Source: Anaerolineae bacterium (GTDB lineage Bacteria > Chloroflexota > Anaerolineae > S140-20). From it: a stretch of DNA of 13,492 nucleotides. The DNA lies in NCBI GenBank assembly GCA_027021705.1, contig JALUTT010000046.1:1-13492 (forward strand), written 5' to 3'. A program made the position numbers and the translations under genes. Below, piece by piece: positions 1 through 13,492 of this stretch; position 1 is the first letter of the stretch; every line of letters begins with the position of its first letter. Under the pieces are notes generated by a model. The model worked only from the letters and a program-made list of their open reading frames with translations. It was not told the DNA's origin and made no database searches.

Positions 1-2
1 CC

Positions 3-137
3 TCAAGTCCCGAAAAGTGGCCTGAAGGGGCCTTCTCGGCTCGGTTGTTGCGTTATGAAGGTGCTTCATCACCCCGGCCCGCAAACCGGGGATGGGGCCT
101 TATTGTCTCTTGTTGTCAAAAGTCCAAAAAGGAGTGA
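3..137 (+). CDS. Possible 3' end of an upstream CDS, truncated at the window start; cmr3 is the positional candidate
   Basis: Frame 3 is open from base 3 to TGA at 135-137 (SSPEKWPEGAFSARLLRYEGASSPRPANRGWGLIVSCCQKSKKE*). The stop overlaps the cmr4 RBS (AAGGAGTGA). RGWGLIV resembles the C-terminal G[FWY]G loop of Cmr3, which normally precedes cmr4. The segment could instead be structured non-coding DNA (see findings). Confidence 0.35.
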   Translation, partial: SSPEKWPEGAFSARLLRYEGASSPRPANRGWGLIVSCCQKSKKE

Positions 138-142
138 TTCCC

Positions 143-1015
143 ATGAATGCCAAACTGCTTTTCCTGCACGCACTCTCTCCCTTGCACGCAGGCACCGGCC
201 AGGGTGTTGGTGCGATTGATCTGCCTATCGCGCGGGAGAAGGGAACTGACATCCCCATCGTGCCTGGATCGAGTGTGAAAGGTGTGCTGCGCGATGCCTG
301 CGATGTCTCTAAGCGCACCCGCATCTTCGGCCCGGATACTGCCAACGCTGCTGCTCACGCTGGGGCGATTCAGATTTCCGACTTGCGTATGGTGGCGCTG
401 CCCGTGCGCAGCTTAGCAGGCGTCTTCGCATGGGTGACGTCACCACTGCTACTCCAACGTCTATCCCGCGATGCCCAGATGGCTGGGCACGAAAGCCTGC
501 CTTCCACACCCTGGATCAGTGATACTGCAGGATGCTGCGTAGCCAGCCAGAGCGCGTTGAGACTCTCTTCTGGAGATGTGGTATTGGAAGATGTAAAGCT
601 CACGCCCACCGATGAAAACGCTGATGGCTGGGCCGAGTGGCTAGCCAGAGCAGTTTTCGAGGATGACTGGCAAGAGGCTTTCAAAGCACGCCTCTGTATA
701 GTGCACGATGACGTTATGTCTTTTCTGTTGCAAACCGGCACAGAGGTAACGGCACGCATTCGCCTGCAGGATGAGAAGAAAACTGTCGCCAAAGGAGCCC
801 TGTGGTACGAAGAAGCGCTGCCCACTGAAAGCTTACTCGTAGGTCTGGTAGTAGCTGCCCCAGTGCAAGTGAACAACTCTGTCGTCCAGCCAGAGGAAGT
901 CTTCGAAACCGTAGCCCAACTGGTCCAGAGACCACTCCAGATCGGCGGCAATGCCACCGTCGGGCGCGGCATCTGCTGTCTGCGTATGGTGGAGGTGAAC
1001 AATGCTAACGCTTGA
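143..1015 (+). CDS. cmr4: Type III-B CRISPR RAMP backbone/RNase subunit Cmr4 (Cas7 family), 290 aa
   Basis: N-terminal LHALSPLHAGTGQGVGAIDLPIAREKGT..P.VPGSSVKGVLR, then LPVRSLAGVFAWVTSP, GALWYEEALP.ESL and the C-terminal G-rich loop LQIGGNATVGRG. The catalytic Asp in IDLP is intact. Start moved from 92 to the ATG at 143 because RBS AAGGAG lies at 129-134. Confidence 0.96.
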   Translation: MNAKLLFLHALSPLHAGTGQGVGAIDLPIAREKGTDIPIVPGSSVKGVLRDACDVSKRTRIFGPDTANAAAHAGAIQISDLRMVALPVRSLAGVFAWVTSPLLLQRLSRDAQMAGHESLPSTPWISDTAGCCVASQSALRLSSGDVVLEDVKLTPTDENADGWAEWLARAVFEDDWQEAFKARLCIVHDDVMSFLLQTGTEVTARIRLQDEKKTVAKGALWYEEALPTESLLVGLVVAAPVQVNNSVVQPEEVFETVAQLVQRPLQIGGNATVGRGICCLRMVEVNNANA

Positions 1016-1379
1016 ACAACAATTCGCCCGAACAATTTACGCACAGATAGCCCGGATTGAACCAAAGTCACAGCAGGCTAAAGAGTACGGCAGCATGGCA
1101 CACAAGCTGCCCGTACTGATTCGCCAGGCCGGACTAGCACAAGCGTTAGCCTATGTCTCAGCACGCGGGAAACCGGGGGCGAAGCAATTGCTGGATGATC
1201 TGGCCATGACCCTCGGGCTTGAGGGAGGTAATCGGGGAGAACAGTTACTTGCCCGAAGCCGTGAAGCGAGCCTACTTGACTATATGCGTCTGACCCGAGA
1301 GGCAATCATAGCACTCACCTGGTACAAACGCTTTGCCCAGTCAATGCTGGGTATCGGGCCTACAGAGAAGGGAGACTGA
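1002..1379 (+). CDS. cmr5: Type III-B small subunit Cmr5 (Cas11), 125 aa
   Basis: Helical protein with YGSMAHKLPVLIRQAGLAQALAY and Y..LTREA..AL.WYKRFAQS signatures. It overlaps cmr4 by 14 bp, has RBS GGAGGTG at 991-997, and sits in the expected position between cmr4 and cmr6. Confidence 0.95.
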   Translation: MLTLEQQFARTIYAQIARIEPKSQQAKEYGSMAHKLPVLIRQAGLAQALAYVSARGKPGAKQLLDDLAMTLGLEGGNRGEQLLARSREASLLDYMRLTREAIIALTWYKRFAQSMLGIGPTEKGD

Positions 1380-1381
1380 CT

Positions 1382-2419
1382 ATGCAAGCACGACGAAACG
1401 ACCTGCGTGGTATTCAACTAGAAAAGCCTCTGCTTCCCCACACAAGTCTCTGGTTAGACAAATTTCTGCCTGAGCAGAGCGAACAGGGTGGAAACAACGT
1501 CTACAAGCCACACTTTAAACAAGCGACCACCATTCCTATCTCTCCGCTCTACCACGACTTCTATGCACGCTGGCAGGCCATGCTCGACACCGTAAGCGCA
1601 CACATAGCCATCGCCACTGCGCGCGGCCGTCTTGTTGTCGGCCTAGGGGCAGACAGCGTGCTCGAAAATGCCATCACTCTACACCGCACTTACGGCGCGC
1701 CCTACATCCCAGGGAGCGCCTTGAAGGGACTGGCAGCACACTACGCTCATAACCACCTCGATCATCCGGATTGGCGGAAAGGCGGCCAAGCGCACAAGAT
1801 CCTTTTCGGCGATACTACCTCATCGGGATACATGACGTTCCTCGACGCGCTCTATGTGCCCAAAAGCGCACCAGACGACAGACCACTGGTGATCGACGTG
1901 GTGGCTGTGCACCATCCCGAATACTACCGTGGCGAAGGCAAACCTCCTGCTGACTGGGACAGTCCCAATCCCGTGCCTTTCGTGAGCGCCCGTGGAAAGT
2001 TTCTGATGGCCTTAGTCGGACCAGATGAATGGGCAGAGGCCACTTTCCAAATCCTGGCGCTGGCGCTTGGCGAGATCGGAATTGGTGCAAAGACTTCCAA
2101 TGGATACGGGCGGATGGAACTGGAAATCCTGGGAGACCAGAGAGGAGAAGAGCAATTCGGCTCAACGTCAAAATATAATGAAGTGGAACGCTTTCGCCAA
2201 TGGCTAGCAAATATGGCAATCAAGGATGTAGCTGGACAAATCCACGGTGTTTATGAAGCGTGGAAGAGCCTCGAAGCTGCCCCAGAAGTCAAGAGAGCAA
2301 TCGCGCAAGCTATTCTGGACAAGATTGAGGAAGCAAAGCGAACAAAGAAAACGTCAAAGAAAGCATGGTATCAGGAACTGGTTGCCTTTGTAAAGAGTAC
2401 CTCGATAGATGGGGAGTAA
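1382..2419 (+). CDS. cmr6: Type III-B RAMP subunit Cmr6, 345 aa, with a ~95-aa helical C-terminal extension
   Basis: Motifs RLVVGLG..SVLENAITLHRTYGAPYIPGSALKG, FLDAL, DV...HHPEYY, PPADWDSPNPVPF and GIGAKTSNGYGRM. Starts 2 bp after the cmr5 stop. Confidence 0.96.
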   Translation: MQARRNDLRGIQLEKPLLPHTSLWLDKFLPEQSEQGGNNVYKPHFKQATTIPISPLYHDFYARWQAMLDTVSAHIAIATARGRLVVGLGADSVLENAITLHRTYGAPYIPGSALKGLAAHYAHNHLDHPDWRKGGQAHKILFGDTTSSGYMTFLDALYVPKSAPDDRPLVIDVVAVHHPEYYRGEGKPPADWDSPNPVPFVSARGKFLMALVGPDEWAEATFQILALALGEIGIGAKTSNGYGRMELEILGDQRGEEQFGSTSKYNEVERFRQWLANMAIKDVAGQIHGVYEAWKSLEAAPEVKRAIAQAILDKIEEAKRTKKTSKKAWYQELVAFVKSTSIDGE

Positions 2420-2426
2420 CTGACCA

Positions 2427-2533
2427 TTGAGCTTGCATTTCGCAGCTTAAGAACCATACGTCAAGGACCGAATAGAGTGAACGACTCTTCCACCTGCTCC
2501 CCAATGTGCAAATATGGTGATATGCAAGCCCAA
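2427..2533. repeat. Imperfect 17-bp inverted repeat bracketing the cmr6-card1 intergenic region
   Basis: TTGAGCTTGCATTTCGC (2427-2443) versus GTGATATGCAAGCCCAA (2517-2533): 14/17 identical to the reverse complement, with a perfect core GCTTGCAT/ATGCAAGC. An internal hairpin AGAGT-gaacg-ACTCT lies at 2474-2488. Confidence 0.45.
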
Positions 2534-2567
2534 AACCTATGTATATGTGCTCAGGGAGGTTCTTCTA

Positions 2568-3455
2568 ATGAAAACGATGATCTTGCTAGTCGGTGAACAG
2601 CCTGTGCCCAACTTATTGCCCGTACATCGTATTCGTCCTGATGCTGTTGTCCTCGTCTACACACCGCTTACTAAGCAAAGGGCGCAGAATCTAAAGAAAG
2701 TAATTGCCGTAGACCAATGTTATATGTGCGAGGTAGATCCTTACACAGTTCCAATAACACAGAAACAGCTTGAGCAGTTCCTCCAAGAAAAATGCTCTGA
2801 CCACACCCTGGTCTTTAACGTCACCGGAGGCACAAAACCAATGGCCTTTGCGGCTTTCTCGATTGCACAAAAGCACAATGCTCCGTTGGTATATCTACAG
2901 ACCCAAGAAGAGCAAAGTCTATTGTACGAATATGAGGTTGACAATTGTTCCCTGCGCTTAAAGGCCGGTACACCTATTTCTCTGCCACCATCAGTCACCA
3001 TTAAGGATTATCTCACTCTCTATCTAGGGGATTACCAAGTTGCAGGGTTCGAGAACGAGTTTGAGAAGGCCGTATACAATGCCTTGCAGCCTTATGTGGA
3101 TGAAATCCTGGCAGGAGTAAGGAAAGGAGGAGCACTACAAATTGATCTAGTGATTCGATGTGGCAATAGAGTGGGTATAGCCGAGGTCAAGACTGGCGGG
3201 AAAGCTGGAAAAAAGGAGGGAATAGATCAATTGAACACCGCTGGTGGACGAGAGTTTCTTGGTATATACACAAAAAAGTTTTTAATTGTGGATAGACCTT
3301 GGGACACCCTCTCTAATCTGCGTGAGTTGGCCGAAGCGCGAAGCATCACTGTTGTCGAGGTTCCTAGTTATGGAAAGAGAAAGGAGATTTCGGAGGAAGA
3401 CCAGAGGGTATTGGTTGAGAGAATCCAACAGGTCCTACGGTGCTCCAGGGACTAA
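2568..3455 (+). CDS. card1: CRISPR ancillary nuclease of the Card1/Can2 (DUF1887) type: N-terminal CARF domain plus C-terminal PD-(D/E)xK restriction-endonuclease-like domain, 295 aa
   Basis: CARF strand-1 motif MILLVGEQPVPNLLP and motif II FNVTGGTKPM (TGGTK at 2823-2837). Nuclease motifs FE..FEKAV, QIDLVI and IAEVKTG (E-x-K at 3183-3191). RBS GGGAGGT at 2554-2560 supports the ATG at 2568 rather than 2514. Lies directly downstream of cmr6. Confidence 0.85.
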   Translation: MKTMILLVGEQPVPNLLPVHRIRPDAVVLVYTPLTKQRAQNLKKVIAVDQCYMCEVDPYTVPITQKQLEQFLQEKCSDHTLVFNVTGGTKPMAFAAFSIAQKHNAPLVYLQTQEEQSLLYEYEVDNCSLRLKAGTPISLPPSVTIKDYLTLYLGDYQVAGFENEFEKAVYNALQPYVDEILAGVRKGGALQIDLVIRCGNRVGIAEVKTGGKAGKKEGIDQLNTAGGREFLGIYTKKFLIVDRPWDTLSNLRELAEARSITVVEVPSYGKRKEISEEDQRVLVERIQQVLRCSRD

Positions 3456-3499
3456 CACTGCCCCATCAGCGTCAGACCCCCTGCTTCCCCTGCCAATTG

Positions 3500-3540
3500 C
3501 CTTAGATCTCCGAGGTCTGCGAGACCTCGGAGATCTGAGG
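3500..3540. repeat. Perfect palindrome, REP-like extragenic element
   Basis: AGATCTCCGAGGTCT (3504-3518) - GCG - AGACCTCGGAGATCT (3522-3536) is a perfect 15-bp inverted repeat, extendable to 3500/3540 with one G:T pair. It is intergenic and has no U-tail. Confidence 0.8.
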
Positions 3541-3569
3541 TGCAAGCCACCATCAGGAGGACACAGGAT

Positions 3570-4421
3570 ATGCTGAATTTAGAAGCTCTCCAGGTCATTG
3601 ATCGGGTCGAGGCGGAGGACGGTACGGTCGTTGAGGTCGTCCAGTACCCCGAACTCAAGGGCTCCGCCGACGTTCGCACGGCGGAGGTCCTCTTCTTCGC
3701 CAACCAGAGCGGGATGCGCCTGAAGATGGTCCGCATCCGGCTGAACGGCTCCTCCGTCCGGGTCGAACCGGGGGCCCTCTACTTTATGAAAGGCAATCTT
3801 ACGATGAAAGCCAGCACCGGAGGCGGGCTGCTCAAGGGGCTGGCCCGCAAGATGGTCTCAGGAGAGACCTTCTTCGTGAACGAAATCCACGGCCGGGGAG
3901 AGGTCTACCTGGAGCCCACCTTCGGCCACTTCCTCCTCCACCACATCAGCAAAAAAGAGGGCGGGGTGATTGTAGATCAGGGACTCTTCTTCGCCGGGAC
4001 GGCCGGGCTCGACATCTCGGCCGTGGCCCAGAAACACCTCTCCTCCGCCCTCTTCGGCGGCGAAGGGCTCTTCCAGACGCGGATCGCCGGCTCGGGGGTG
4101 GCCGTGCTCTACTCCCCCGTCCCCAAAGAAGAAGTGATCCGCTACGAACTCGCCGGCGACCGGCTGGCAGTAGATGGGAACTTCGCCCTGATGCGCAGTG
4201 AGAAGGTCGCCTTCAAAGTGGAGAAGAGCAGCAAGAGCTGGATCTCCACTGCCGTCTCCGAGGAAGGGTTCCTCCAGGTCTTCGAGGGCACCGGATCCGT
4301 CTGGATCGCCCCGACGCAGGGGATCTACGAGAAGCTGGCCCGTCCGGAGGGGTTGCGGGCGCTGGCCGGGCCGCCGGGGTCCATCCAAACCCAGACAAAG
4401 AGCTCGTCGAAGAAACGGTGA
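3570..4421 (+). CDS. AIM24 family protein (DUF124/TIGR00266-like, TRAP-like beta fold), 283 aa
   Basis: Three beta-rich repeats with family-type motifs: VRVEPGALYFMKG, RKMVSGETFFVNEIHGRGEVYLEPTFGHF, LFGGEGLFQTRIAGSG, LAVDGNFALMRS..V.FKVEKS and SEEGFLQVFEGTGSVWIAPT. RBS AGGAGG at 3555-3560 supports the ATG at 3570. Confidence 0.88.
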   Translation: MLNLEALQVIDRVEAEDGTVVEVVQYPELKGSADVRTAEVLFFANQSGMRLKMVRIRLNGSSVRVEPGALYFMKGNLTMKASTGGGLLKGLARKMVSGETFFVNEIHGRGEVYLEPTFGHFLLHHISKKEGGVIVDQGLFFAGTAGLDISAVAQKHLSSALFGGEGLFQTRIAGSGVAVLYSPVPKEEVIRYELAGDRLAVDGNFALMRSEKVAFKVEKSSKSWISTAVSEEGFLQVFEGTGSVWIAPTQGIYEKLARPEGLRALAGPPGSIQTQTKSSSKKR

Positions 4422-4455
4422 GCCTGCATTCCCCTGCCGTTAAAGGACCTTCTCT

Positions 4456-4523
4456 GCCGCCGAGACGCCGAGGGCGCAGAGGAATCTCCGGGTTCTCTCG
4501 GCGTTCTCCGCGCCTCGGCGGTG
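4456..4523. repeat. Imperfect long hairpin built of CGCNGAG 9-mer units (REP-like element); may also act as a terminator or stabiliser after the AIM24 gene
   Basis: Left arm GCCGCCGAGACGCCGAGGGCGCAGAG (4456-4481) pairs with right arm CTCTCGGCGTTCTCCGCGCCTCGGCGGTG (4495-4523). Each arm has three CGC[ACG]GAG units at 9-nt spacing. Confidence 0.7.
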
Positions 4524-4647
4524 GAAAGAGCGCCGTCGAGCGGGCCGGCCCGATAAGGGAGAACCGCCCACGCCAAGCAGCCAAGGCCCTCCTATCCTCG
4601 GCCCGACCTCGAAATGCAGGACGCAGAGAAACACCGAGCAAGACCAC

Positions 4648-4683
4648 ACCCCCACGGATGTGGGGGTATCGTTGTGGTACAAT
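4648..4683 (+). promoter_or_regulatory. Putative extended -10 sigma70 promoter for the DruH-like/DruE-like/CARF operon, with a palindromic operator over the -35 region
   Basis: TG-G-TACAAT at 4675-4683, about 105 bp upstream of the ATG at 4788. A perfect 8-bp inverted repeat ACCCCCAC-ggat-GTGGGGGT (4648-4667) covers the position where -35 would fall. Confidence 0.5.
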
Positions 4684-4787
4684 AGCAGAGAAGTCTCTCG
4701 GAGCGGAGCAGCGGGCGGCCGACCGCTCATCCGTCCTCACGCCTAGCGGCGAAGCGTCGTATCGGCAATCTGTCGAGGTGATGGAAG

Positions 4788-7700
4788 ATGGCAAACAACA
4801 ATCCCCCCCAATCCCTGGACGACTGGGAGCGCGAGCTCCGGCCCCGTATGGACCGCATCGAGCTGATCGGCGAACTGGACCTGTCGGAAGCAGAGACGGC
4901 CGCTATCGGCGACCATATTCGGACACGGATCCGCGTTTTGGGCGCCCGACGGGCCACCCGGCAACTCCGGGAGCGCTACCCCTGCACCTTCGTCACCTAC
5001 CTCGTCTTCCAAGGCATCTACGGTTACGAAAGCGGCGACTACTGGTCCGCCGTCTGTCGGGCCACCGGGCTCCCCGACGATCCCAACCACACCCGGGAGT
5101 GGGGCTGGCTTTTCGAGACGATTGTGAAGAAGCTGGGGCTGTACCACGAATTCCCCGGCCACCGCTACGTGGGGGCCATCCTGGGACACGGCGGCATCCC
5201 CAAAGCCTCCCTTCCCGATTTCTTCGAGCACATGCTCCAGCCCTCCGTCACCAAGCCGGAGTTGGCCGGCCTCCCCACGCCGGAACTCATCTCCGAGTGG
5301 GTAACCCGCTCACCCCGTCACTTCGTGGACAAACCCGTGCTCCGCTTCCTGGAGCGCGGGGAGCGGGTGGCCGAGGAGTTCGTCGAGCGGTGCCGCCGGA
5401 TGGCTGCCGACACTTTGGAGAAAGGGGAGGTGCCATCCGCAACAGAGGTTGGGCTCCCCACCTTCGTCGTAGAGCACTATCGGCGATGGGTAGAGGCTCC
5501 CCATCGGCCGGAGCTCAAATCTACGACCGGACCGCGCTGGCGCCGTCCCCGCCTCTTTCTGGACCCGTGGGGCGACGGCGTTCAGATTCACCTCCCTGCT
5601 CAGCAAATCCCCGAGGCGTCAAAGGGGGCGGAGGTGCGATGGGAGGTGCAGATGGGGGAAACGGTTCCCCCACAGCTCGTGCCCGTCCGGCTCCGGCCGA
5701 CAGAGCGGGGTTGGGAGACCGAGGAGGTCTTCCTTCGCCTCCCGCACCCCGCGCCAACATACCGCTGCCGGCTCCTCGTGGGCGACCAGCCCCAGCGCGA
5801 GTGGTCCCTCAGAGGGCCGGATGACGACCATCCGTGGCTCGCCTTCGACGCCGAGGCCGGCCGCCAGTTGAACTCCCGAACGCGCCTGCCGGCCCGCCCC
5901 CTCTGGCTCCTGATCGCACCGGAGGTGACCCTGGAGGCTGTGCCGCCCAACCCCCTCTTCATCCGAGAGCGGCTGCCGGAGCTTCCCGGAGGCTGGTACG
6001 GGTGGCAAGCCTACGAGGTGGACCTGGCGCGTGTTACCTCGCTCATCCTGCACTCCCCCCAAGGAAATCCGAGGGTCTCCGTGCGTCAGGAGGCCACACC
6101 CCTCCGGCTCAAGCTGGTAGGCGGCAGACGGTGGTCTCCCCCCGACGCAACCGTTCCCCTTTACAGCGGCGAGCCCCCTCGCCTGCGCATCCCGTGGGTG
6201 CAAGATGCCGATCCCCGTCAGCTCTCCCGCTGGCGCCTCGAACTCCGGCCCGAGGGGAGGGCTCTGCCTGCTGAGCCCGTGCAGACCACCTTCGAGGCAT
6301 TGGCCGACCGGTTGACCTCGACGCCATCCTCCGGGAAGCCCGCGTCTCAGAGAGCGCTGGAGCTCCCCCTGACCCATCTGTTGGGGGAGCGCCCCATAGG
6401 ACGGTATCGCTTGCGTCTGCGCGATCCACGGGGCCGCAGCGCCACCCTGCGCTTCGGCATCGTGCCCTATCTGCGCATCACCGGCCACGAGCCCCTCTAC
6501 CTGCCCGATCCCCAACAGGGCGGCCCCCGGGTATCGCTTGTCGTGGAGACCGATGCCTGGACGAAGGCAGAACTCCGATCCCCAAACCCCGATCTGGGCT
6601 TAACCCTGGTGGACCGTGGTAAGGGAACCCACCGCTATCAGGTGAAACTGCCCCCCGACTGCACGGAGATTTCCCTGCGCTTGGTACGTCGCCTTCCCCA
6701 AGAAGACTCGGTTTCCTTCTCCCTGCGGATTCCCATCCACCGCCTGCGCTGGCAGTTGGTCCTCCACCCGGACTCGGCCGTCTCCTCTCCCTGGCGCGAT
6801 CGGACGGTCTCCGTCGGCCTGGATGAGTTGGCGCAGAGCGCCTCGCCCTACTTGCTGGTGGACCTCCCCGGCCCGGGGATGGGAGCCCGCCTGCGGCTGC
6901 ACCTGCTGGACGCCGACGACACCCTCCTCTCTCTGCCAGAGGTCCCCCAATCATCCCGCCGTCCGTCCCGCTCCCGCCGCTTCGACCTCCGCCTGGTCCA
7001 GGACACGCTGCGCCAATCCCGGTCGCCGGCGATCCGGGGTGAGCTGATCATCGAGGGGCTGCCGGATCGGGAGGGGCCGGTGACGCTGCCGGTGCTGCAC
7101 TTCGCCCGCGGCATCCACGTGGACCGGGTGCGCGTCACGCGCCGGCAGGAAGGGGGGAAGACTTACGTGGACCTGGCCTGGGAGCCGGAGGTTCCCCTGA
7201 ACAAGCGCCGCGTCCGCCTCTGGCCGCTGACCCGCCCCTGGGCGAAACCGGTGTCCGTCCCCATCCCCGACGCGGCCCGATCCCGACATACCTTCTCGAC
7301 CGAGGATGAGGTCCTGCCGGCGGGGGAGTACCTGGTGGAGTTCACCGTGGATGATCCCTGGGCTCCCCGGCCGGCGCCGGAGCGACCTCCCTCCACCGAC
7401 GATGGGGGCCTCCGCGTCCGCTTGGGGACCTTGGAGGAGCGGCTGGCTTGGCTCGACGCGGCCATCGCCCGCGAGGGGGAGCGCTTCGACTACCTGGGCG
7501 AGCAAGCTTTGCTGTGGCAGGCTCTGGGCGACGAGGCTCAGGTCGCCCAGACCTTACGACGCTGCCTGGCCCGAGCCAAGGATGCCCCAGCAGACCAGGT
7601 GATCGCTCTGGCCGGCGCGTTCAACGATCATTCCATCGCTGATGCCCTCCGATCAGGCCTCTATCAACCACACCGGATCTGCGCTGTGCGAGAAGCCCGC

Positions 7701-8450
7701 CAAGCCGGGCGGCTGAGCGATCCCGACTGGCAAGCCTACCTGAACGGACTGCGCCGGCACGCCCCCCAACTCCTGGCCGTCCCCCAAGCGTGGAAAGTGC
7801 TCCTCGAAGTTTCGGATGAAGGGGTCCGCCAGGCAGCGGCACGACAACTCATCGTTCACAAGGATCTCGCCGGCCTCGAAGCGCTCCTGAAATGGGTCAG
7901 AGAAGGCGAACTCTCCGAGACCGCGGCCTTGGAGACCTTGGAGAAAAACCTGGACTTTGCCGCCCGCGCCCTGGGGGCGCGAGCTGCCGATCCCACCGCC
8001 TTGCGCTTATTGAACGGCCTGGCTGCGAAGTATCCCGGCCAGGTGCCCATCCTCTACGTGCAGCGGGGATACTGGGTCCGCTGCCAGGTCGGCTGGGGGC
8101 GCATCGAGCGCATCGAGGACACAGACGGGCGCGAGGTCCCCTACGTCCATCGGAAGGAACTGTCCTGGGGCTACCGGCTGTGGATCGCGCTGCGTCCTGA
8201 CGAGGACGCAGAGCTGGTGGTGCTCGACTTGGATCGGGGCGAAATCCACTTTCTTCTCCCATCCCGACACTATCTCTGCACCAAATGCGGCCAGTTCGCC
8301 GCCCGGAGGCACGGATGGATCACCGGTCGCCACGAGCGGTCCGCCCACGAAGGGTGGCATCCTCGATTCCTCATCTTAGAGACCCTGTTCCTTCCCCAGC
8401 AAGCCGATCTCCGGTTTGCGATACGGCGTCCATCCGACATCTGGCAGTGA
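4788..8450 (+). CDS. Large (1220 aa) multidomain partner of the DUF1998 helicase; putative remote DruH-like (Druantia type III-like) protein
   Basis: RBS GAGGTG at 4775-4780 and strong GC3-biased coding. The helical N-terminal domain YPCTFVTYLVFQGIYGYESGDYWSAV...WGWLF...RYVGAILGHGGIP..SLPDFF resembles the F.LY.....Y...W / FLG.L..EGG[LI]P pattern I recall for DruH-type N-termini. It is followed by a long beta-rich (Ig-like) middle, helical repeats and a C-terminal C2H2-like motif. Size and position 19 bp upstream of a DruE-like helicase fit DruH. The CDS is certain; the family call is inference. Confidence 0.6.
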   Translation: MANNNPPQSLDDWERELRPRMDRIELIGELDLSEAETAAIGDHIRTRIRVLGARRATRQLRERYPCTFVTYLVFQGIYGYESGDYWSAVCRATGLPDDPNHTREWGWLFETIVKKLGLYHEFPGHRYVGAILGHGGIPKASLPDFFEHMLQPSVTKPELAGLPTPELISEWVTRSPRHFVDKPVLRFLERGERVAEEFVERCRRMAADTLEKGEVPSATEVGLPTFVVEHYRRWVEAPHRPELKSTTGPRWRRPRLFLDPWGDGVQIHLPAQQIPEASKGAEVRWEVQMGETVPPQLVPVRLRPTERGWETEEVFLRLPHPAPTYRCRLLVGDQPQREWSLRGPDDDHPWLAFDAEAGRQLNSRTRLPARPLWLLIAPEVTLEAVPPNPLFIRERLPELPGGWYGWQAYEVDLARVTSLILHSPQGNPRVSVRQEATPLRLKLVGGRRWSPPDATVPLYSGEPPRLRIPWVQDADPRQLSRWRLELRPEGRALPAEPVQTTFEALADRLTSTPSSGKPASQRALELPLTHLLGERPIGRYRLRLRDPRGRSATLRFGIVPYLRITGHEPLYLPDPQQGGPRVSLVVETDAWTKAELRSPNPDLGLTLVDRGKGTHRYQVKLPPDCTEISLRLVRRLPQEDSVSFSLRIPIHRLRWQLVLHPDSAVSSPWRDRTVSVGLDELAQSASPYLLVDLPGPGMGARLRLHLLDADDTLLSLPEVPQSSRRPSRSRRFDLRLVQDTLRQSRSPAIRGELIIEGLPDREGPVTLPVLHFARGIHVDRVRVTRRQEGGKTYVDLAWEPEVPLNKRRVRLWPLTRPWAKPVSVPIPDAARSRHTFSTEDEVLPAGEYLVEFTVDDPWAPRPAPERPPSTDDGGLRVRLGTLEERLAWLDAAIAREGERFDYLGEQALLWQALGDEAQVAQTLRRCLARAKDAPADQVIALAGAFNDHSIADALRSGLYQPHRICAVREARQAGRLSDPDWQAYLNGLRRHAPQLLAVPQAWKVLLEVSDEGVRQAAARQLIVHKDLAGLEALLKWVREGELSETAALETLEKNLDFAARALGARAADPTALRLLNGLAAKYPGQVPILYVQRGYWVRCQVGWGRIERIEDTDGREVPYVHRKELSWGYRLWIALRPDEDAELVVLDLDRGEIHFLLPSRHYLCTKCGQFAARRHGWITGRHERSAHEGWHPRFLILETLFLPQQADLRFAIRRPSDIWQ

Positions 8451-8469
8451 AAATGCGAGGAGGCTGACG

Positions 8470-11400
8470 ATGCCCCAACCGATTCACCCGCTGGAGGCCG
8501 CCCGGCGCATCCGCGATGACTACGTCCGCTACCTGCGCACCACCTACTTCTTCCGCGATGAGGCCCTGCGCCGTCAGTTCGTGCAAGCCCTGGAATCCCC
8601 CGGCTTCCTCGTCCAAGGCCCCATCCTGGAAGCGTCCCCTCCCTTCCGGCGAGGCCGCTCCATTGCCGAGCTCATCGCCGAAGGAATCCTACATCCTGAC
8701 TTCCGGGCGCTCTGCTCGGAGGCACTACCCCTGGATCGGCCTCTCTACCTGCACCAGGATCGCGCCGTCGAGAAGGTCGTGGCCCAAGGACGCAACATCG
8801 TCGTCGCCACCGGCACGGGCAGCGGCAAGACCGAGGCTTTCCTGATCCCCATCCTCGACCACCTGCTCCGGCAGCGGGAGCGGGGAGAACTCCAACGGCC
8901 AGGGGTGCGGGCGCTATTGCTCTACCCGATGAACGCCCTGGCCAACGATCAACTCAAGCGGCTGCGCCGGGTCTTGGCCGCTTTCCCGGAGATCACCTTT
9001 GGCCGCTACACGGGGGAGACCAAGGAGACATCCCACGAGGCCGAGGCCCTCTTCCGAGAACAGTTCCCCGAAGAGCCCCTCCTGCCCAACGAGCGGATCA
9101 GCCGGGAGCAGATGTGGGAGAGCCCCCCCCATATCCTGATCACCAACTACGCGATGCTGGAGTACCTCCTGCTCCGCCCCAAGGACAGTGAGTTCTTCGA
9201 CGGCGAGACGGGGCAGTTCTGGCGCTTCATCGTGCTGGACGAGGCCCACACCTACAACGGGGCCCGGGGGATCGAGATCGCGATGCTCCTGCGCCGCCTC
9301 AAGGACCGGGTGGTGCGCAGTGAGCCGGGCCGTCTGCGTTGCATCGCCACCAGCGCCACGCTGGGGCAGGGCCGCCGGGATTTCCCGGATGTGGCCCGCT
9401 TCGCCAGCGCCCTCTTCGGTGAACCCTTTGAGTGGGACGCGCACGACCCCCGGCGCCAAGATGTGGTCGAGGGCGTGCAGGCGGAGATGGCAGCCCTGGG
9501 TGCGCTCTGGGGAGAGGGCACCGACGCCCTCTACGCCGACCTGACCACGGCGATTGCCCGGGGCGAGCCTCTGGACCGGCTGGCCCAGGTGGCCGTGGAC
9601 CAGGGCGTACCGGTATCGGTCGTCCAGAAGGCCCTGGAAGCCGCCGGCCGCGAGGAACAGGTCCGCGATGCCACAAACCGCTTCCTGTATGAGTTGCTGC
9701 GGGGCGACCGCCGCTTGCACCGCTTGCAGGAGGCGCTGTCGGAGCCCCGCGACCTCTCCGAACTGGCCGACGAGATCGCCCCCCACGGGGCGCCGGATGC
9801 CGTCATCCACCTGGTGCGGCTGGCCGTGCGAGCCCGTCCCCGGCCCGATGCCGTCTCCCTACTGCCGGCCCGCTACCACCTCTTCGCCCGGGCACTGGAA
9901 GGAGCCTTCGTCTGCCTGAACCGAGATCATCCGGCCCACGCCGAGGCGAAAAAGCCCTATCTCTTCCTGAGCCGCCACGAGGTCTGTCCCCACTGCGGTG
10001 GCCGCGTCTTCGAGTTCGCCGCCTGCCCCCGCTGCGGCACGGCTTACCTCATCGGACGGGAGGGGCGGGGGCCCTCTGAGGAGGACCGCCGCTACCCCGT
10101 TTTGCGCCACCCCATCACGACCGTCGAGGATGTCTCGACCGGCCTGATTTACTTCGTCCTGACGGGAGAGGTGCTCCGGCCCGACGAGGATGAGGCCGTG
10201 GTGATGGGAGAATCCGTGGAAGCGCTGGAGGGGGAACGGCTGGAGCCCTACACGGTCTGTCTGGGATGCGGTGCCCTCAGCCCGGGCAGGGAGAAGCCCC
10301 CCTGCGACTGCCCGGCGACCACCCCCATCGCCCGCCTACAGCGGGTCGTCTCCGAACCGGCGGGGAAGCCATCGGGGGGGCTACGGCGCTGTGTGACCTG
10401 TGGGGCCAGGCGACACGACGGCGTCGTGTCCCGCTTCCTGACGGGCCGGGATGCGCCGGTGAGCGTGCTGGCCACCTCGCTGTACCAACTGCTGCCCCCG
10501 GCCGAGGAGGGCCGGGCCTCGGAACTCCCCGGTCAGGGCCGCAAGCTCCTCGTCTTCGCCGACAGCCGGCAGGATGCCGCTTTCTTCGCCCCCTACCTGG
10601 AGCGCACCTATAGCCGAATCCTGCGCCGCCGCCTCATCCTGAAGGCGCTGACCGAGGACCCCGGCGGTCGTACCGGTCGTCTGCGGCTCCAGGACCTGGT
10701 GCCCCGGGTGCTGGAGGAAGCCGAGGAGGCCGGCGTCTTCACCGCCGGCCAGAGCTTCGACGAACGGACCCGCCAGGTAAGCCGGTGGCTGATGCAGGAG
10801 TTCATCGCCCTCGACTACCGCATCGGTCTGGAGGGGCTGGGGCTGCTCCACTTCCGCCTGATCCCTCCCCGGGGTTGGACGCCTCCCGCCCCCCTGCTGG
10901 CTCCGCCCTGGAACCTGACCGACGGAGAGGTATGGGACCTGCTGGTGGTCCTGCTCAACACCCTGCGTCGGCAAGGCGTGGTGACCTTCCCACCCTATGT
11001 GGATCCTCGCGATCCCGCCTTCGAGCCGCGCAACGTGGAACTCTTCGTGGGGGAGTACGCCATCGCCAAGCATTGGGTGTTGGGCTGGTTGCCCAAGCGG
11101 GGCAGCAACCGACGGATGGATTACCTGGTGCGGCTCCTGCACCGTCGGGCCGGCCTCCCCCCGACCGAAGCCGAGGCTGTCGCCCGGGGGACGATGCAGG
11201 GGCTCTGGCGCCACCTCACCGATCGCGCCTCGCCGTGGCGCAGCCACCTGTCCGTCGAGCACCCTCCCTCGGCCGGCGTGGCCTACCGCCTCAGTCACCG
11301 CTTCTGGGAGTGGGTGCCCGTGACCGAAATGAACCTCCCCGTCTACCGTTGCAACCGCTGTTTCAACGTCACTTACGTGAACCTGGACGGCGTCTGCCCG

Positions 11401-13395
11401 ACCTACGGCTGCGATGGGACCCTGGAGCGGGTGGACGGGCAGGCCGGGGCCTGGGAAGGGAACCACTACCGCCACCTCTACCGGACGCTAACCCCCATCC
11501 CCCTGAGCGCCGAGGAGCACACCGCCCAGTGGACCCCCCAGGCGGCCGGGGAGGTCCAGGACCGCTTCATCCGGGGAGAGGTCAATGTCCTCAGTTGCTC
11601 AACCACCTTTGAGCTGGGCGTGGATGTGGGGGACCTGCAAGCGGTGCTGATGCGCAATGTGCCTCCCACCACCGCCAACTACGTGCAGCGGGCCGGACGG
11701 GCCGGGCGTCGAACCGACTCGGTGGCCCTGGTGCTGACCTATGCCCAGCGTCGGTCCCACGACCTGACCCACTTCAGGAACCCTCGGCGGCTGGTGGCCG
11801 GTTCCATCCGGCCGCCGGTGGTGGTCGTCGCCAACGAGAAGATCGTGCGTCGTCACGTCCATTCCGTCCTGCTGGGCGCCTTCTTCCGCTGGGCACGGGA
11901 TCACCACGGGCGGCTCTTCCCCACGGTGGGGAGCTTCTTCGCCCCGGAGGATGGGGAGGTGTCCGGGCCGGAGCTGCTGAACCGCTACCTGCGCCAGCGC
12001 CCCCGCGCCGTCCAGGAGGCCCTGCAACGCATCGTTCCCCCCGAACTGAAATCCGTCCTGGGGATCGCCGACTGGGGATGGTTGCCCCGGTTGACCGACG
12101 AGAAGGGGAAGGGGATCCTCGACGCCGTCGTCGAAGAAGTCCTCGGCGACCTGGCCCAATACCGGGAATTGGAGCAGGAAGCGGTACAGGAGCGCAACTA
12201 CCGTCGTGCAGAGCACTTCCAACGGGTGGCGGCCACCGTGCGTCGCCGTGAACTGCTGGGCTTCCTGGGCGCCCGCAACGTGTTGCCCAAGTACGGTTTT
12301 CCCACCGACGTGGTCGAGTTGCGCACCCACCACGTCTATCGGTCCGAGGCAAGGCGGGTGGAGTTGCAACGGGACCTGCGCATCGCCATCTCCGAGTACG
12401 CGCCGGGGGGAGAGGTGGTGGCGGCCAAGCGCATCTGGGTCGGCGGGGGGCTCTACCGCAGGTCGGGCCGCGAATGGCAGGTCGTCCATTACGCCGTTTG
12501 CCCCCAATGCGGCCGCTTCCACCGGGACCTCCGGCCGCTGAACAGGCGATGTACCGTCTGCGGAGCGGACCTCTTCGGTTGGCCTCGGCGGCCCGTTCGG
12601 TTCGTGATCCCTGAGTGGGGGTTCCTGGCCAGCAGCAAGACCCGCGATCCGGGGGAGCGCCGGCCCCAACGCATCTACGCCTCGCGGGTCTTCTTCTCCG
12701 AGTATGTGTCGGAGGGGGCAGGGGGGGGTGCCGGCTTGGAGGAGGTTCCCCGGCTATCGGGCGAGGCCGTCCGGGTGGCCCGACGTTACTCCCGCTACGG
12801 CAGGCTGGCCGTGGTCAACGCCGGTGTGGGCGGCGCAGGGTTCCGCCTCTGCACCCGCTGCGGATGGGCGGAAGCGGCGCCCTCGACGAGGCCCGGACGG
12901 CGCTCGCACCGTCAACGGTCTCACACCAATCCGCGCACCGGACGGCCCTGTCACGGCACCATCGAGACCTATCACCTGGGCCACGAGTTCATCACCGACG
13001 TGCTGGAACTGCGCTTCACAGGCCCCCTGGCCCCGGCCGACGACCGCGACCTCTGGCTCTCCACCCTCTACGCCCTGCTGGAGGGGGCCAGCGAGGCGCT
13101 GGGCATCGCCCGGGATGACCTGGACGGGACCCTCTACCCCTACCGGGTTGGCTCACCGCCGGCCTTGGTCCTCTTCGACAACGTGCCCGGCGGCGCGGGC
13201 CACGTGCGTTGCATCGCCCAAGCCCTTCCCCGGGTCGTCCAGGCGGCCTGGGAGCGCGTGGCCCGCTGCGAGTGCGGTGAGGAGACCAGTTGCTACGAGT
13301 GCCTGCGTAACTTCTACAACCAGCACGTCCACGACCGGCTCCGCCGCGGCCGAGCGCGGGACCTCCTAGGGGTGTTGATAGAGAGGCCGGGATGA
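8470..13395 (+). CDS. Giant SF2 DEAD/DEAH-box helicase with C-terminal DUF1998 (MrfA-type Zn-binding) domain; DruE-like anti-phage helicase, 1641 aa
   Basis: Q motif LYLHQ, Walker A ATGTGSGKTE, Ia LLYPMNALANDQ, ITNYAMLEYLLLRP, Walker B LDEAH, III SATL, IV LVFADSRQDAA, EEHTAQ, V STTFELGVDVGDL, VI NYVQRAGRAGRR, LPKYGFP, and DUF1998 FDNVPGGAG...CEC....SCYECLRNFYNQ..H..L.R. RBS GAGGAGG at 8457-8463 supports the ATG at 8470 rather than 8416. Confidence 0.9.
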   Translation: MPQPIHPLEAARRIRDDYVRYLRTTYFFRDEALRRQFVQALESPGFLVQGPILEASPPFRRGRSIAELIAEGILHPDFRALCSEALPLDRPLYLHQDRAVEKVVAQGRNIVVATGTGSGKTEAFLIPILDHLLRQRERGELQRPGVRALLLYPMNALANDQLKRLRRVLAAFPEITFGRYTGETKETSHEAEALFREQFPEEPLLPNERISREQMWESPPHILITNYAMLEYLLLRPKDSEFFDGETGQFWRFIVLDEAHTYNGARGIEIAMLLRRLKDRVVRSEPGRLRCIATSATLGQGRRDFPDVARFASALFGEPFEWDAHDPRRQDVVEGVQAEMAALGALWGEGTDALYADLTTAIARGEPLDRLAQVAVDQGVPVSVVQKALEAAGREEQVRDATNRFLYELLRGDRRLHRLQEALSEPRDLSELADEIAPHGAPDAVIHLVRLAVRARPRPDAVSLLPARYHLFARALEGAFVCLNRDHPAHAEAKKPYLFLSRHEVCPHCGGRVFEFAACPRCGTAYLIGREGRGPSEEDRRYPVLRHPITTVEDVSTGLIYFVLTGEVLRPDEDEAVVMGESVEALEGERLEPYTVCLGCGALSPGREKPPCDCPATTPIARLQRVVSEPAGKPSGGLRRCVTCGARRHDGVVSRFLTGRDAPVSVLATSLYQLLPPAEEGRASELPGQGRKLLVFADSRQDAAFFAPYLERTYSRILRRRLILKALTEDPGGRTGRLRLQDLVPRVLEEAEEAGVFTAGQSFDERTRQVSRWLMQEFIALDYRIGLEGLGLLHFRLIPPRGWTPPAPLLAPPWNLTDGEVWDLLVVLLNTLRRQGVVTFPPYVDPRDPAFEPRNVELFVGEYAIAKHWVLGWLPKRGSNRRMDYLVRLLHRRAGLPPTEAEAVARGTMQGLWRHLTDRASPWRSHLSVEHPPSAGVAYRLSHRFWEWVPVTEMNLPVYRCNRCFNVTYVNLDGVCPTYGCDGTLERVDGQAGAWEGNHYRHLYRTLTPIPLSAEEHTAQWTPQAAGEVQDRFIRGEVNVLSCSTTFELGVDVGDLQAVLMRNVPPTTANYVQRAGRAGRRTDSVALVLTYAQRRSHDLTHFRNPRRLVAGSIRPPVVVVANEKIVRRHVHSVLLGAFFRWARDHHGRLFPTVGSFFAPEDGEVSGPELLNRYLRQRPRAVQEALQRIVPPELKSVLGIADWGWLPRLTDEKGKGILDAVVEEVLGDLAQYRELEQEAVQERNYRRAEHFQRVAATVRRRELLGFLGARNVLPKYGFPTDVVELRTHHVYRSEARRVELQRDLRIAISEYAPGGEVVAAKRIWVGGGLYRRSGREWQVVHYAVCPQCGRFHRDLRPLNRRCTVCGADLFGWPRRPVRFVIPEWGFLASSKTRDPGERRPQRIYASRVFFSEYVSEGAGGGAGLEEVPRLSGEAVRVARRYSRYGRLAVVNAGVGGAGFRLCTRCGWAEAAPSTRPGRRSHRQRSHTNPRTGRPCHGTIETYHLGHEFITDVLELRFTGPLAPADDRDLWLSTLYALLEGASEALGIARDDLDGTLYPYRVGSPPALVLFDNVPGGAGHVRCIAQALPRVVQAAWERVARCECGEETSCYECLRNFYNQHVHDRLRRGRARDLLGVLIERPG

Positions 13396-13492
13396 ACACG
13401 CCGGAGGTGTTGATCGCCACGCTGGGAACCGAATCCCAGGTCGTCACCCTCTCCCTCCTGGAACTGGAGCGGATGGGGTTCGACGTTGGGGA
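13392..13492 (+). CDS. 5' end of a CRISPR-associated CARF protein of the NE0113/Csx14 (Crn1-like ring nuclease or Csm6-type CARF) family; truncated by the window end and absent from the ORF track
   Basis: The ATG at 13392 overlaps the helicase TGA (ATGA), with a GAGAGG RBS-like motif at 13381-13386. Translation MNTPEVLIATLGTESQVVTLSLLELERMGFDVG matches the CARF strand-1/helix-1 pattern L[IV]ATLG.[SE]PQVVT..L..L...G. Only 33 codons are visible. Confidence 0.75.
   Translation, partial: MNTPEVLIATLGTESQVVTLSLLELERMGFDVG

Follow-up and report, generated by a model that had tools for sequence, protein, structure and literature searches.

This locus raises the question whether a Druantia-type helicase system has been wired to the signalling of a type III CRISPR system. 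The window, by which we mean the whole stretch of 13,492 bp that was analysed, is one entire contig (C46) of a 5.19-Mb metagenome-assembled genome (94.9% complete, 4.5% contaminated) of an uncultured hot-vent bacterium whose relatives are Chloroflexota (Caldilineales, Ardenticatenaceae). According to the listing of open reading frames (ORFs) and their translations, all genes of the window lie on the forward strand. A 1220-aa gene (4788-8450) and a 1641-aa DUF1998 helicase gene (8470-13395), 19 bp apart, stand between type III-associated genes, and the helicase stop codon overlaps the start of a gene for a CARF protein. An earlier note on this DNA took the two large genes for a Druantia III-like pair, nested in the type III locus and translationally coupled to the CARF gene, and proposed a hybrid system linked to cyclic oligoadenylate (cOA) signalling. 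Such a coupling, if true, would put a Druantia-type helicase system under the control of cOA signalling for the first time, and would be a natural wiring of innate helicase defence to CRISPR alarm signalling. The comparative evidence speaks for a chance arrangement within a defence island. Judged from sequence comparison and a structure model, the pair is very probably a compact Druantia III-B-like anti-phage module in a mosaic island, and its link to the CARF gene a one-off of this lineage, with no hybrid system.

The DruE-like and DruH-like proteins

Gene families were called with Pfam, PADLOC and NCBIfam. The gene sizes and the 19-bp gap given in the earlier note agree with the ORFs, and homologues align from residue 1-5 of the helicase form that starts at ATG 8470. 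This protein is a compact, YprA-family helicase with Pfam matches to DEAD (3.1e-24), Helicase_C (6.9e-10) and MZB/DUF1998 (1.4e-14), and it is matched by the PADLOC models DruE1 (1.8e-208) and DruE3 (4.4e-190). A PDB chain, 9tu7, was also matched (E 5.3e-95). The MZB domain occupies residues 1534-1612 of 1641 and the protein stops 29 residues later, lacking the two C-terminal PLD-like nuclease domains that are a feature of Druantia III-A. The comparison with DruE of E. coli ATCC 8739 (record NC_010468) gave two blocks of 27-28% identity (E 7e-55), and the alignment ends at residue 1712 of the 2104 residues of the E. coli protein, where its PLD domains would begin. Both giant ORFs of the window are intact, and Walker A, DEAH, motif VI and the MZB cysteines are readable in the translation of the helicase.

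The 1220-aa protein had no match in Pfam, PADLOC or NCBIfam, none in the PDB with either the single sequence or the family profile, and none by tblastn against plasmids. Its family comprises 1111 cluster representatives at E<=0.001, and no Pfam family was found on the protein or its relatives; relatives of the E. coli DruH, by contrast, carry PF27205 in 42 of the 43 listed, most of them PF27201 as well. When the family was compared by hhalign with a 28-sequence alignment of the DruH/YjiT family, the two matched over 726 columns with a probability of 93.6% (E 2.1e-07), and both family alignments share a conserved GG[IL]P at about residue 135. The protein's nearest neighbours in the ESM Atlas are clusters with YjiT domains (score 0.89, 191 shared features), which we treat as a lead only. 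An AlphaFold2 model built from 47 sequences (mean predicted local distance difference test score 87.2) shows a helical N-domain at residues ~1-236, a run of ~6-7 Ig-like beta domains at ~255-880, helical repeats at ~882-1081 and a small beta module at the C-terminus, in which a CxxC...H motif is invariant and a second His nearly invariant across the family alignment. The available part of a recent cryo-EM preprint describes DruH as a globular N-domain, six Ig-like subdomains and a C-terminal domain (10.64898/2026.05.12.722862). A Foldseek search of the model against the PDB returned only generic tandem-Ig proteins such as titin (TM scores 0.09-0.19), and the DruH coordinates of the preprint were not among the matches. 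From remote homology and the predicted architecture, the 1220-aa protein appears to be a remote DruH homologue. The Druantia III-like character assigned to the pair in the earlier note thus holds, through the DruE models for the helicase and the family-to-family comparison for its partner. A "motif-less" family of more than 1000 cluster representatives is now tied to DruH by profile and predicted architecture, though current models miss the family.

Some DruH-like relatives are fused at the N-terminus to RNA polymerase alpha-CTD repeats and sigma-70 region 4, and others to a whole sigma-70 (regions 1.2-4) at the C-terminus or to a Rex-like repressor domain; fusions to transcription-type DNA-binding modules were seen in P0018, P0020, P0023, P0024, P0053, P0057, P0117, P0153, P0198, P0199 and P0207. 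Since some relatives are fused to such modules, there are hints that the family may work at DNA or at RNA polymerase. By analogy with the Druantia III systems that have been studied, the DruE-type helicase would load on exposed phage single-stranded DNA (ssDNA), unwinding in the 3'->5' direction; its DruH-like partner would bind ssDNA or sense infection, and both proteins would be needed for defence.

Neighbourhoods of the pair and of the CARF gene in relatives

Homologous pairs were collected from 81 loci, three on genome contigs, 11 in 10 of 400 other genomes of the phylum and 67 in metagenomes; the metagenome set was scanned with the closer alignment A3 and counted without L101, which is the window itself, and L169, which had no panel match. 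At >=95% nucleotide identity the 81 loci form 67 clusters, 39 of which have a locus of at least 10 kb. The pair's gene is rare near the source genome, being present in none of three genomes of the same family and in one of 60 relatives. A tblastn panel of Cas10, RAMP, CARF effector, AAA-Csx3, Csx15 and CARF-helix-turn-helix (CARF-HTH) queries found nothing in any of the 67 clusters (0/67). PADLOC likewise found no type III or CARF-domain gene among 138 neighbouring ORFs at 14 genome loci and 133 at 22 metagenome loci. The proposal of a cOA-linked hybrid in the earlier note does not survive this comparison, in which type III and CARF genes were not associated with homologous pairs, an outcome that the note itself had named as refuting it.

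What does accompany the DruH-like gene is a DruE-like gene, which follows it in 51 of the 67 clusters and in 38 of the 39 with a locus of at least 10 kb, the rest being cut by contig ends. Any BREX gene (BrxC, PglX, BrxA or BrxF) was found near the pair in 33/67 clusters, a NERD helicase in 17/67, and BrxC, PglX and BrxA together in 8/67. Stand-alone pairs are common, because 16 of these 39 longer-locus clusters have no BREX gene. The neighbours recognized by PADLOC are genes of BREX, type I restriction-modification, AbiE, CBASS, RmrA, SoFic and dGTPase. The closest relatives, L011 and L102, share 45% identity in the DruH-like protein and have BrxF-BrxC directly upstream of the pair; L011 has a NERD helicase and PglX downstream. 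The relatives lie for the most part in a cassette of the order (NERD helicase)-BrxC-PglXI-[DruH-like]-[DruE-like]-BrxA, for instance at L011, L029, L030, L033, L118, L121, L137-L139 and L152, and no PglZ was seen in the fetched stretches of these BREX-type-3-like cassettes. In the window no BrxC, PglX or BrxA lies beside the pair, the neighbours being an AIM24-family gene and the CARF-HTH gene; the rest of the genome yields a partial BrxC-like match of 35% identity (C66) and only weak PglX-like ones.

The comparison was also made from the side of the CARF gene. In the window only its first 33 codons are present (13392-13492), and these 33 residues match CARF3 models (4.4e-06). Extension of the contig gave the full gene on C158, which encodes 286 aa with Pfam matches to Cas_NE0113 (1.9e-30) and a GerE/LuxR-type HTH (1.9e-06), in agreement with the NE0113-type CARF read from the start of the gene in the earlier note. 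Matches to this CARF-HTH protein occur in 81 of the 401 genomes sampled from the phylum (G000 among them), and a large part of the matches cover the HTH only, as in G038 and G272. Among the 20 best full-length CARF-HTH loci, 18 stand beside type III genes, within 3-4 genes: 15 with Cas10 or RAMP genes and three more with accessory genes (AAA-Csx3, Csx15, Card1-like). None of the 20 has a DruE-like or DruH-like gene, and four genomes with both genes carry the pair gene and the CARF-HTH gene on different contigs. At L088 (G031:C56, same class) the order is cmr4-cmr5-cmr6-CARF-HTH-csx1-csx15-cas8b-cas7b, which is the backbone of the window minus card1, AIM24 and the pair. The CARF-HTH start at L088 abuts the cmr6 stop, and the regulator is tightly packed behind the preceding gene at other loci too. 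A paralogue in the genome under study heads the cmr2 operon on C59. The CARF gene is, by domain content and neighbourhood, a Csa3-like regulator normally of type III loci, and would bind cOA and regulate a promoter. Because neither the 67 pair clusters nor the 20 CARF-HTH loci show the pairing, the coupling of the pair to CARF and type III genes looks like a single case confined to this lineage, not a hybrid system kept across relatives.

The island and the CARF-HTH junction

The left part of the window consists of type III-B genes behind the end of an insertion sequence (IS). The first 127 nt are the terminal stretch of a multi-copy IS-like element (1..127; strand not applicable), and unique letters begin at 128, 12 nt 5' of the cmr4 start. 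The cmr4-5-6 genes and the Card1/Can2 nuclease gene placed upstream of the pair on the same strand by the earlier note were recovered with Pfam, PADLOC and NCBIfam. They comprise cmr4, a type III-B Cas7-like RAMP gene (140..1015; TIGR02580 1.3e-72, above cut-off; PADLOC Cmr4 3.4e-73), cmr5 (1002..1379; PF09701 Cas_Cmr5 1.1e-27), cmr6 (1382..2419; TIGR01898 1.9e-38; PADLOC Cmr6 2e-45) and card1, encoding a Card1/Can2-like effector with CARF and PD-(D/E)xK domains (2568..3455, the ORF opening at 2514; PF23400 CARF_Card1 4.5e-13). PADLOC CARF4--CARF_PDDEXK covers the Card1-like protein over the full model (4.5e-98), and the family matches start at Met 2568.

The terminal repeat of the window (126 nt) also starts C51, C114 and the reverse complement of C155, and occurs within C9. 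Sequencing depth over 1-127 is 509 compared with ~67 across the remaining window, and the IS-like element, at ~7-8x depth, lies on a collapsed 1,525-nt contig in the source run. Its other end type forms the start of C59 (1-128), adjoining cmr genes, and both flanks carry the same 6-bp direct repeat: AAAGGA precedes the IS on C59 and follows it in the window. Near the IS end, C59 encodes a RAMP protein, a 614-aa Cmr2 with GGDD, the CARF-HTH paralogue and an AAA-Csx3 protein. The matching AAAGGA flanks of C59 and the window make it most likely that the cmr operon was interrupted directly ahead of cmr4 by an IS that duplicated a 6-bp target; no contig bridges this join. The type III-B module would then consist of cmr4-6 in the window and Cmr2 (GGDD) with a further RAMP on C59, its halves being linked only via the multi-copy IS. 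Further type III material lies elsewhere in the genome, with Cas10-like matches on C85 and C83 and RAMP genes on C85 and C104; a cOA signal could therefore originate at other loci.

Between card1 and the pair lies an AIM24-family gene (3570..4421, with an alternative GTG start at 3540; PF01987 1.8e-45), which has host-like codon use and was omitted from the earlier note. In the tblastn panel AIM24 was absent at all of the 14 + 68 + 20 related pair and CARF-HTH loci checked, and the literature matches listed included none that pairs AIM24 with CRISPR or CARF. By this count the gene is no part of the pair in relatives. Directly 3' of the AIM24 stop, RNA folding predicts a long imperfect hairpin (4453..4525, forward strand); the region 4422-4560 folds with -70.9 kcal/mol (z = -2.25 compared with shuffles), no T-run follows the hairpin, and it may be a transcript boundary or a repetitive extragenic palindromic (REP)-like element. 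A 366-bp spacer separates AIM24 from the druH-like start. Within it, ~105 nt upstream of that start, an extended -10-like motif, TGGTACAAT (4675..4683, forward strand), was read by eye, and we infer from the letters that it is a candidate for a promoter of the pair's own. A consensus scan for promoters and terminators that required both hexamers gave nothing above shuffle expectation near the pair on the + strand, and TGGTACAAT was not listed by it.

To the right, the window joins C158 (in reverse complement) and then C155 through unique 127-nt overlaps of contig ends. Downstream of the CARF-HTH gene follow csx15 (NF040560 1.2e-07 on the C158 fragment, below cut-off, with tblastn matches to PADLOC-typed Csx15 genes of relatives), type I-D-like cas genes, namely Csc2 (3.1e-101), a Cas3-type helicase, two Cas6, Cas4 and Cas1, and then a 63-repeat CRISPR array reaching the contig end. 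The island extends over ~38 kb between two inverted copies of one IS, C155 ending in the inverted copy; the two copies around the CRISPR and defence region resemble a composite transposon. On the reverse complement of C158, 16 nt after the CARF-HTH stop and in the same frame, there is a 41-codon NERD-helicase remnant, identical in 22/41 residues to the N-terminal NERD motif region of the L011 NERD helicase (tblastn of the whole genome, E 2e-09). In L011, the closest relative, that helicase directly follows the DruE-like gene. The remnant points to local rearrangement of an ancestral Druantia/BREX cassette.

Composition divides the window in two. GC content at third codon positions (GC3) is 0.47-0.60 from cmr4 to card1 (card1 0.47), compared with 0.80-0.89 for AIM24, the pair and the CARF-HTH gene; the cmr4-card1 block has 46-57% GC in a genome of 66%, with a sharp break at ~3500. 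Neither this break nor the IS-like end at 1-127 appears in the earlier note. Only 0.3% of the 1-kb windows of the genome are below 48% GC. The first 5 kb of C59, with its cmr genes, are also low in GC, as is part of the type I-D region (C155 ~5.5-12.5 kb, 51-57%). Because of the GC3 contrast, the type III-B block appears compositionally foreign, and the pair and CARF-HTH gene resident. Contigs from public sequencing runs were mapped onto the window for a comparison of strains. An assembly chimera was ruled out by contigs of the likely source run covering 100-8092 and 8063-13429 and by a contig of another study that covers 11866-13492 and runs on. Contigs of ~98% identity in two runs of another study cover the pair. 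In two of the records (10 and 15) the match to the window begins at 3570, the AIM24 ATG, and continues rightwards; to the left of it they have 499 and 365 letters that do not match. In the runs X3 and X4 the cmr4-card1 part had low or no cover, an observation on which no conclusion here rests.

Taken together, composition and junctions mark the locus as a mosaic defence island. In the order of events that we propose, the partners of the pair would have disappeared from an ancestral cassette of the type BrxF-BrxC-DruH-DruE-NERD helicase-PglX, and the helicase stop codon would have become the landing site of the CARF-HTH gene, followed by csx15 and the type I-D genes. The type III-B effector block (cmr4-6 and card1) on the left of the pair was presumably acquired horizontally and split by the IS. 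The pair would have an upstream spacer of its own (366 bp, with the hairpin and the TGGTACAAT motif) and probably carries the CARF-HTH gene on its transcript. Reshuffling of CRISPR and other defence genes by IS elements and foreign modules is well illustrated by this locus.

Several observations weigh against a Druantia III-B-like module whose CARF link is a one-off. The assignment of the partner is remote: PADLOC DruH3 (PDLC00038) and Pfam YjiT_N/YjiT_2nd miss the 1220-aa protein even at E<=10, and the family profile compared by hhalign with the single E. coli DruH gave a probability of 0.3%. The tblastn panel may miss divergent cas or CARF genes, the PADLOC scans reached 36 of the 81 loci, and short stretches are frequent in the metagenome set. 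One weak Csa3-type HTH match was found by PADLOC near the pair at L032, and type I-G cas7 and cas5-6 lie ~5 kb from the pair at L035; the other cas matches near pairs are two to the Cas3 query and possibly reflect generic helicase similarity. The junction with the CARF gene itself is tight. As the earlier note had stated and the letters bear out, 13392-13395 reads ATGA, the CARF ATG (13392-13394) overlapping the helicase TGA (13393-13395), and GAGAGG stands 5 nt upstream of the ATG. From this 4-nt overlap, a plausible ribosome site within the helicase gene and the lack of a predicted terminator, the CARF-HTH gene really is, as far as the letters tell, operonic with the pair at this locus, and it probably shares transcription and translation with the pair in this lineage. 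The GC3 of the CARF-HTH gene (0.89) is like that of the pair, which argues that the fusion is not very recent. Two records of the second study (14 and 21) cross the helicase-CARF junction and extend past the window; together with records 10 and 15 they make this junction common to the species-level lineage and the card1-AIM24 junction strain-specific. A regulatory link between the CARF protein and the pair within this lineage is possible. Of the nesting and coupling in the earlier note, the physical position between type III-associated genes and an overlap that fits co-translation therefore stand, but the coupling is not conserved.

These junction data bear most directly on a lineage-specific recruitment, in which the CARF-HTH protein made from the pair's transcript would sense cOA from the genome's type III systems and switch the druHE promoter, the csx15/type I-D operon or both, on or off; Druantia expression would in this organism alone be coupled to the type III alarm. 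Consistent with it are the ATGA overlap with its ribosome-site-like GAGAGG, the retention of the junction in related strains of the second study, a regulator with a full CARF domain and a LuxR-type HTH, and a Cas10 with a GGDD motif in the genome; a precedent is given by the CARF-HTH-headed superoperons with Druantia III described in the accessible text of PMC11090510. We nevertheless consider such recruitment unlikely: it is not conserved outside the lineage (0/67 pair clusters, 0/20 CARF-HTH loci), the upstream spacer as read by eye yielded no operator, the regulator stands at the 3' end of the pair and not at its head, and the NERD-helicase remnant suggests an accidental insertion. The more specific version has a CARF-LuxR regulator taken up at the 3' end of a Druantia III-B-like operon; its dose would follow druHE transcription, and cOA would set the expression of the pair and of csx15/type I-D. 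This version seems to us slightly less likely again.

Less probable than recruitment is a true hybrid effector, in which the pair would cooperate with type III, for example by providing ssDNA for the Card1-like nuclease, or be gated by cOA through the CARF protein. Card1-type enzymes are reported to act on ssDNA, and this activity and the nesting of the pair on one strand between cmr4-6/card1 and CARF-HTH/csx15 would fit such cooperation. The cmr4-card1 block, however, is of foreign composition and severed from cas10 by the IS, the AIM24 gene, the hairpin and the 366-bp spacer lie between it and the pair, and related strains have other DNA left of 3570. With co-occurrence at 0/81 pair loci and 0/20 CARF-HTH loci, the hybrid is largely refuted by the comparative counts. 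An equally improbable reading would have the pair as a decaying remnant of a BREX-type-3-like cassette (BrxF-BrxC-...-NERD helicase-PglX) that no longer defends, as might be thought from BrxF-BrxC directly upstream in L011 and L102, from the NERD helicase and PglX also present downstream in L011, from the 41-codon NERD fragment that is all that is left at this locus, and from a genome without full BrxC, PglX and BrxA of this kind. Decay is hard to reconcile with two intact giant ORFs and readable helicase motifs and MZB cysteines; BREX genes are also absent in the 16 of 39 clusters with longer loci, and a two-gene III-B system defends alone in M. smegmatis according to the available text of PMC13316683.

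Comparison with known systems

Druantia III-B is described, in the accessible parts of two reports, as DruH with a compact DruE that has no PLD domains (10.64898/2026.05.13.724758; PMC12458937). In M. smegmatis the available text gives MSMEG_1253/1254 as a DruH of 1132 aa and a DruE of 1667 aa (PMC13316683). The window resembles this system in its two co-directional giant genes, the partner coming first (1220 compared with 1132 aa) and the helicase second (1641 compared with 1667 aa), the latter with DEAD, Helicase_C and DUF1998-MZB domains and no nuclease tail. It differs from the M. smegmatis III-B genes, whose DruH was compared by description only, in the 19-bp gap without gene overlap and in the CARF-HTH gene that follows. 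With E. coli Druantia III-A it shares a homologous helicase core, a remotely homologous partner and the same plan of N-domain, Ig-like run and C-domain. The E. coli DruH belongs to the YjiT/STY4851 family and its DruE carries two PLD domains, whereas the window helicase has no PLD and its partner is missed by the DruH models.

BREX type 3, as Goldfarb and co-workers (2015) are said to have listed it, consists of BrxF, BrxC, PglXI, BrxHII, PglZ and BrxA. In relatives the pair occupies the place between PglXI and BrxA in which one would look for BrxHII and PglZ; unlike BREX type 3, the pair of the window has no adjacent BrxC, PglX or BrxA. The occurrence of the pair in BREX type-3-like cassettes in place of BrxHII/PglZ bears on the relationship between Druantia and BREX. 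This BREX-embedded family context is not described in the main text of PMC12458937, to which the statement is confined.

The CARF-HTH protein resembles the Csa3-type regulators in having an N-terminal CARF (Cas_NE0113) and a C-terminal HTH and in being encoded beside cas genes. It differs from them in that the HTH is of the GerE/LuxR type and the gene follows a Druantia helicase instead of heading a cas10 operon. The earlier note knew of no description of such a coupling. Full-text searches of the literature returned no paper in which a type III CARF-HTH gene is translationally coupled to a Druantia pair. The statement in the note calls for a qualification, superoperons that combine an RtcR-like CARF-HTH regulator with Druantia III having been published (PMC11090510, in the part of the text available). 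With Druantia III-B and CARF-regulated superoperons with Druantia III already known, the one-off arrangement is of limited value. According to the same text, superoperons around CoCoNuTs that are headed by such a regulator include Druantia type III (Bell et al. 2024, PMC11090510), and the window is like these in holding a CARF-HTH-type regulator and a Druantia III pair in one predicted operon-like array. The regulator of the CoCoNuT superoperons is RtcR-like (CARF-ATPase-HTH), stands at the 5' end and is recurrent, whereas that of the window is a small NE0113 CARF-LuxR protein, stands at the 3' end and was seen once.

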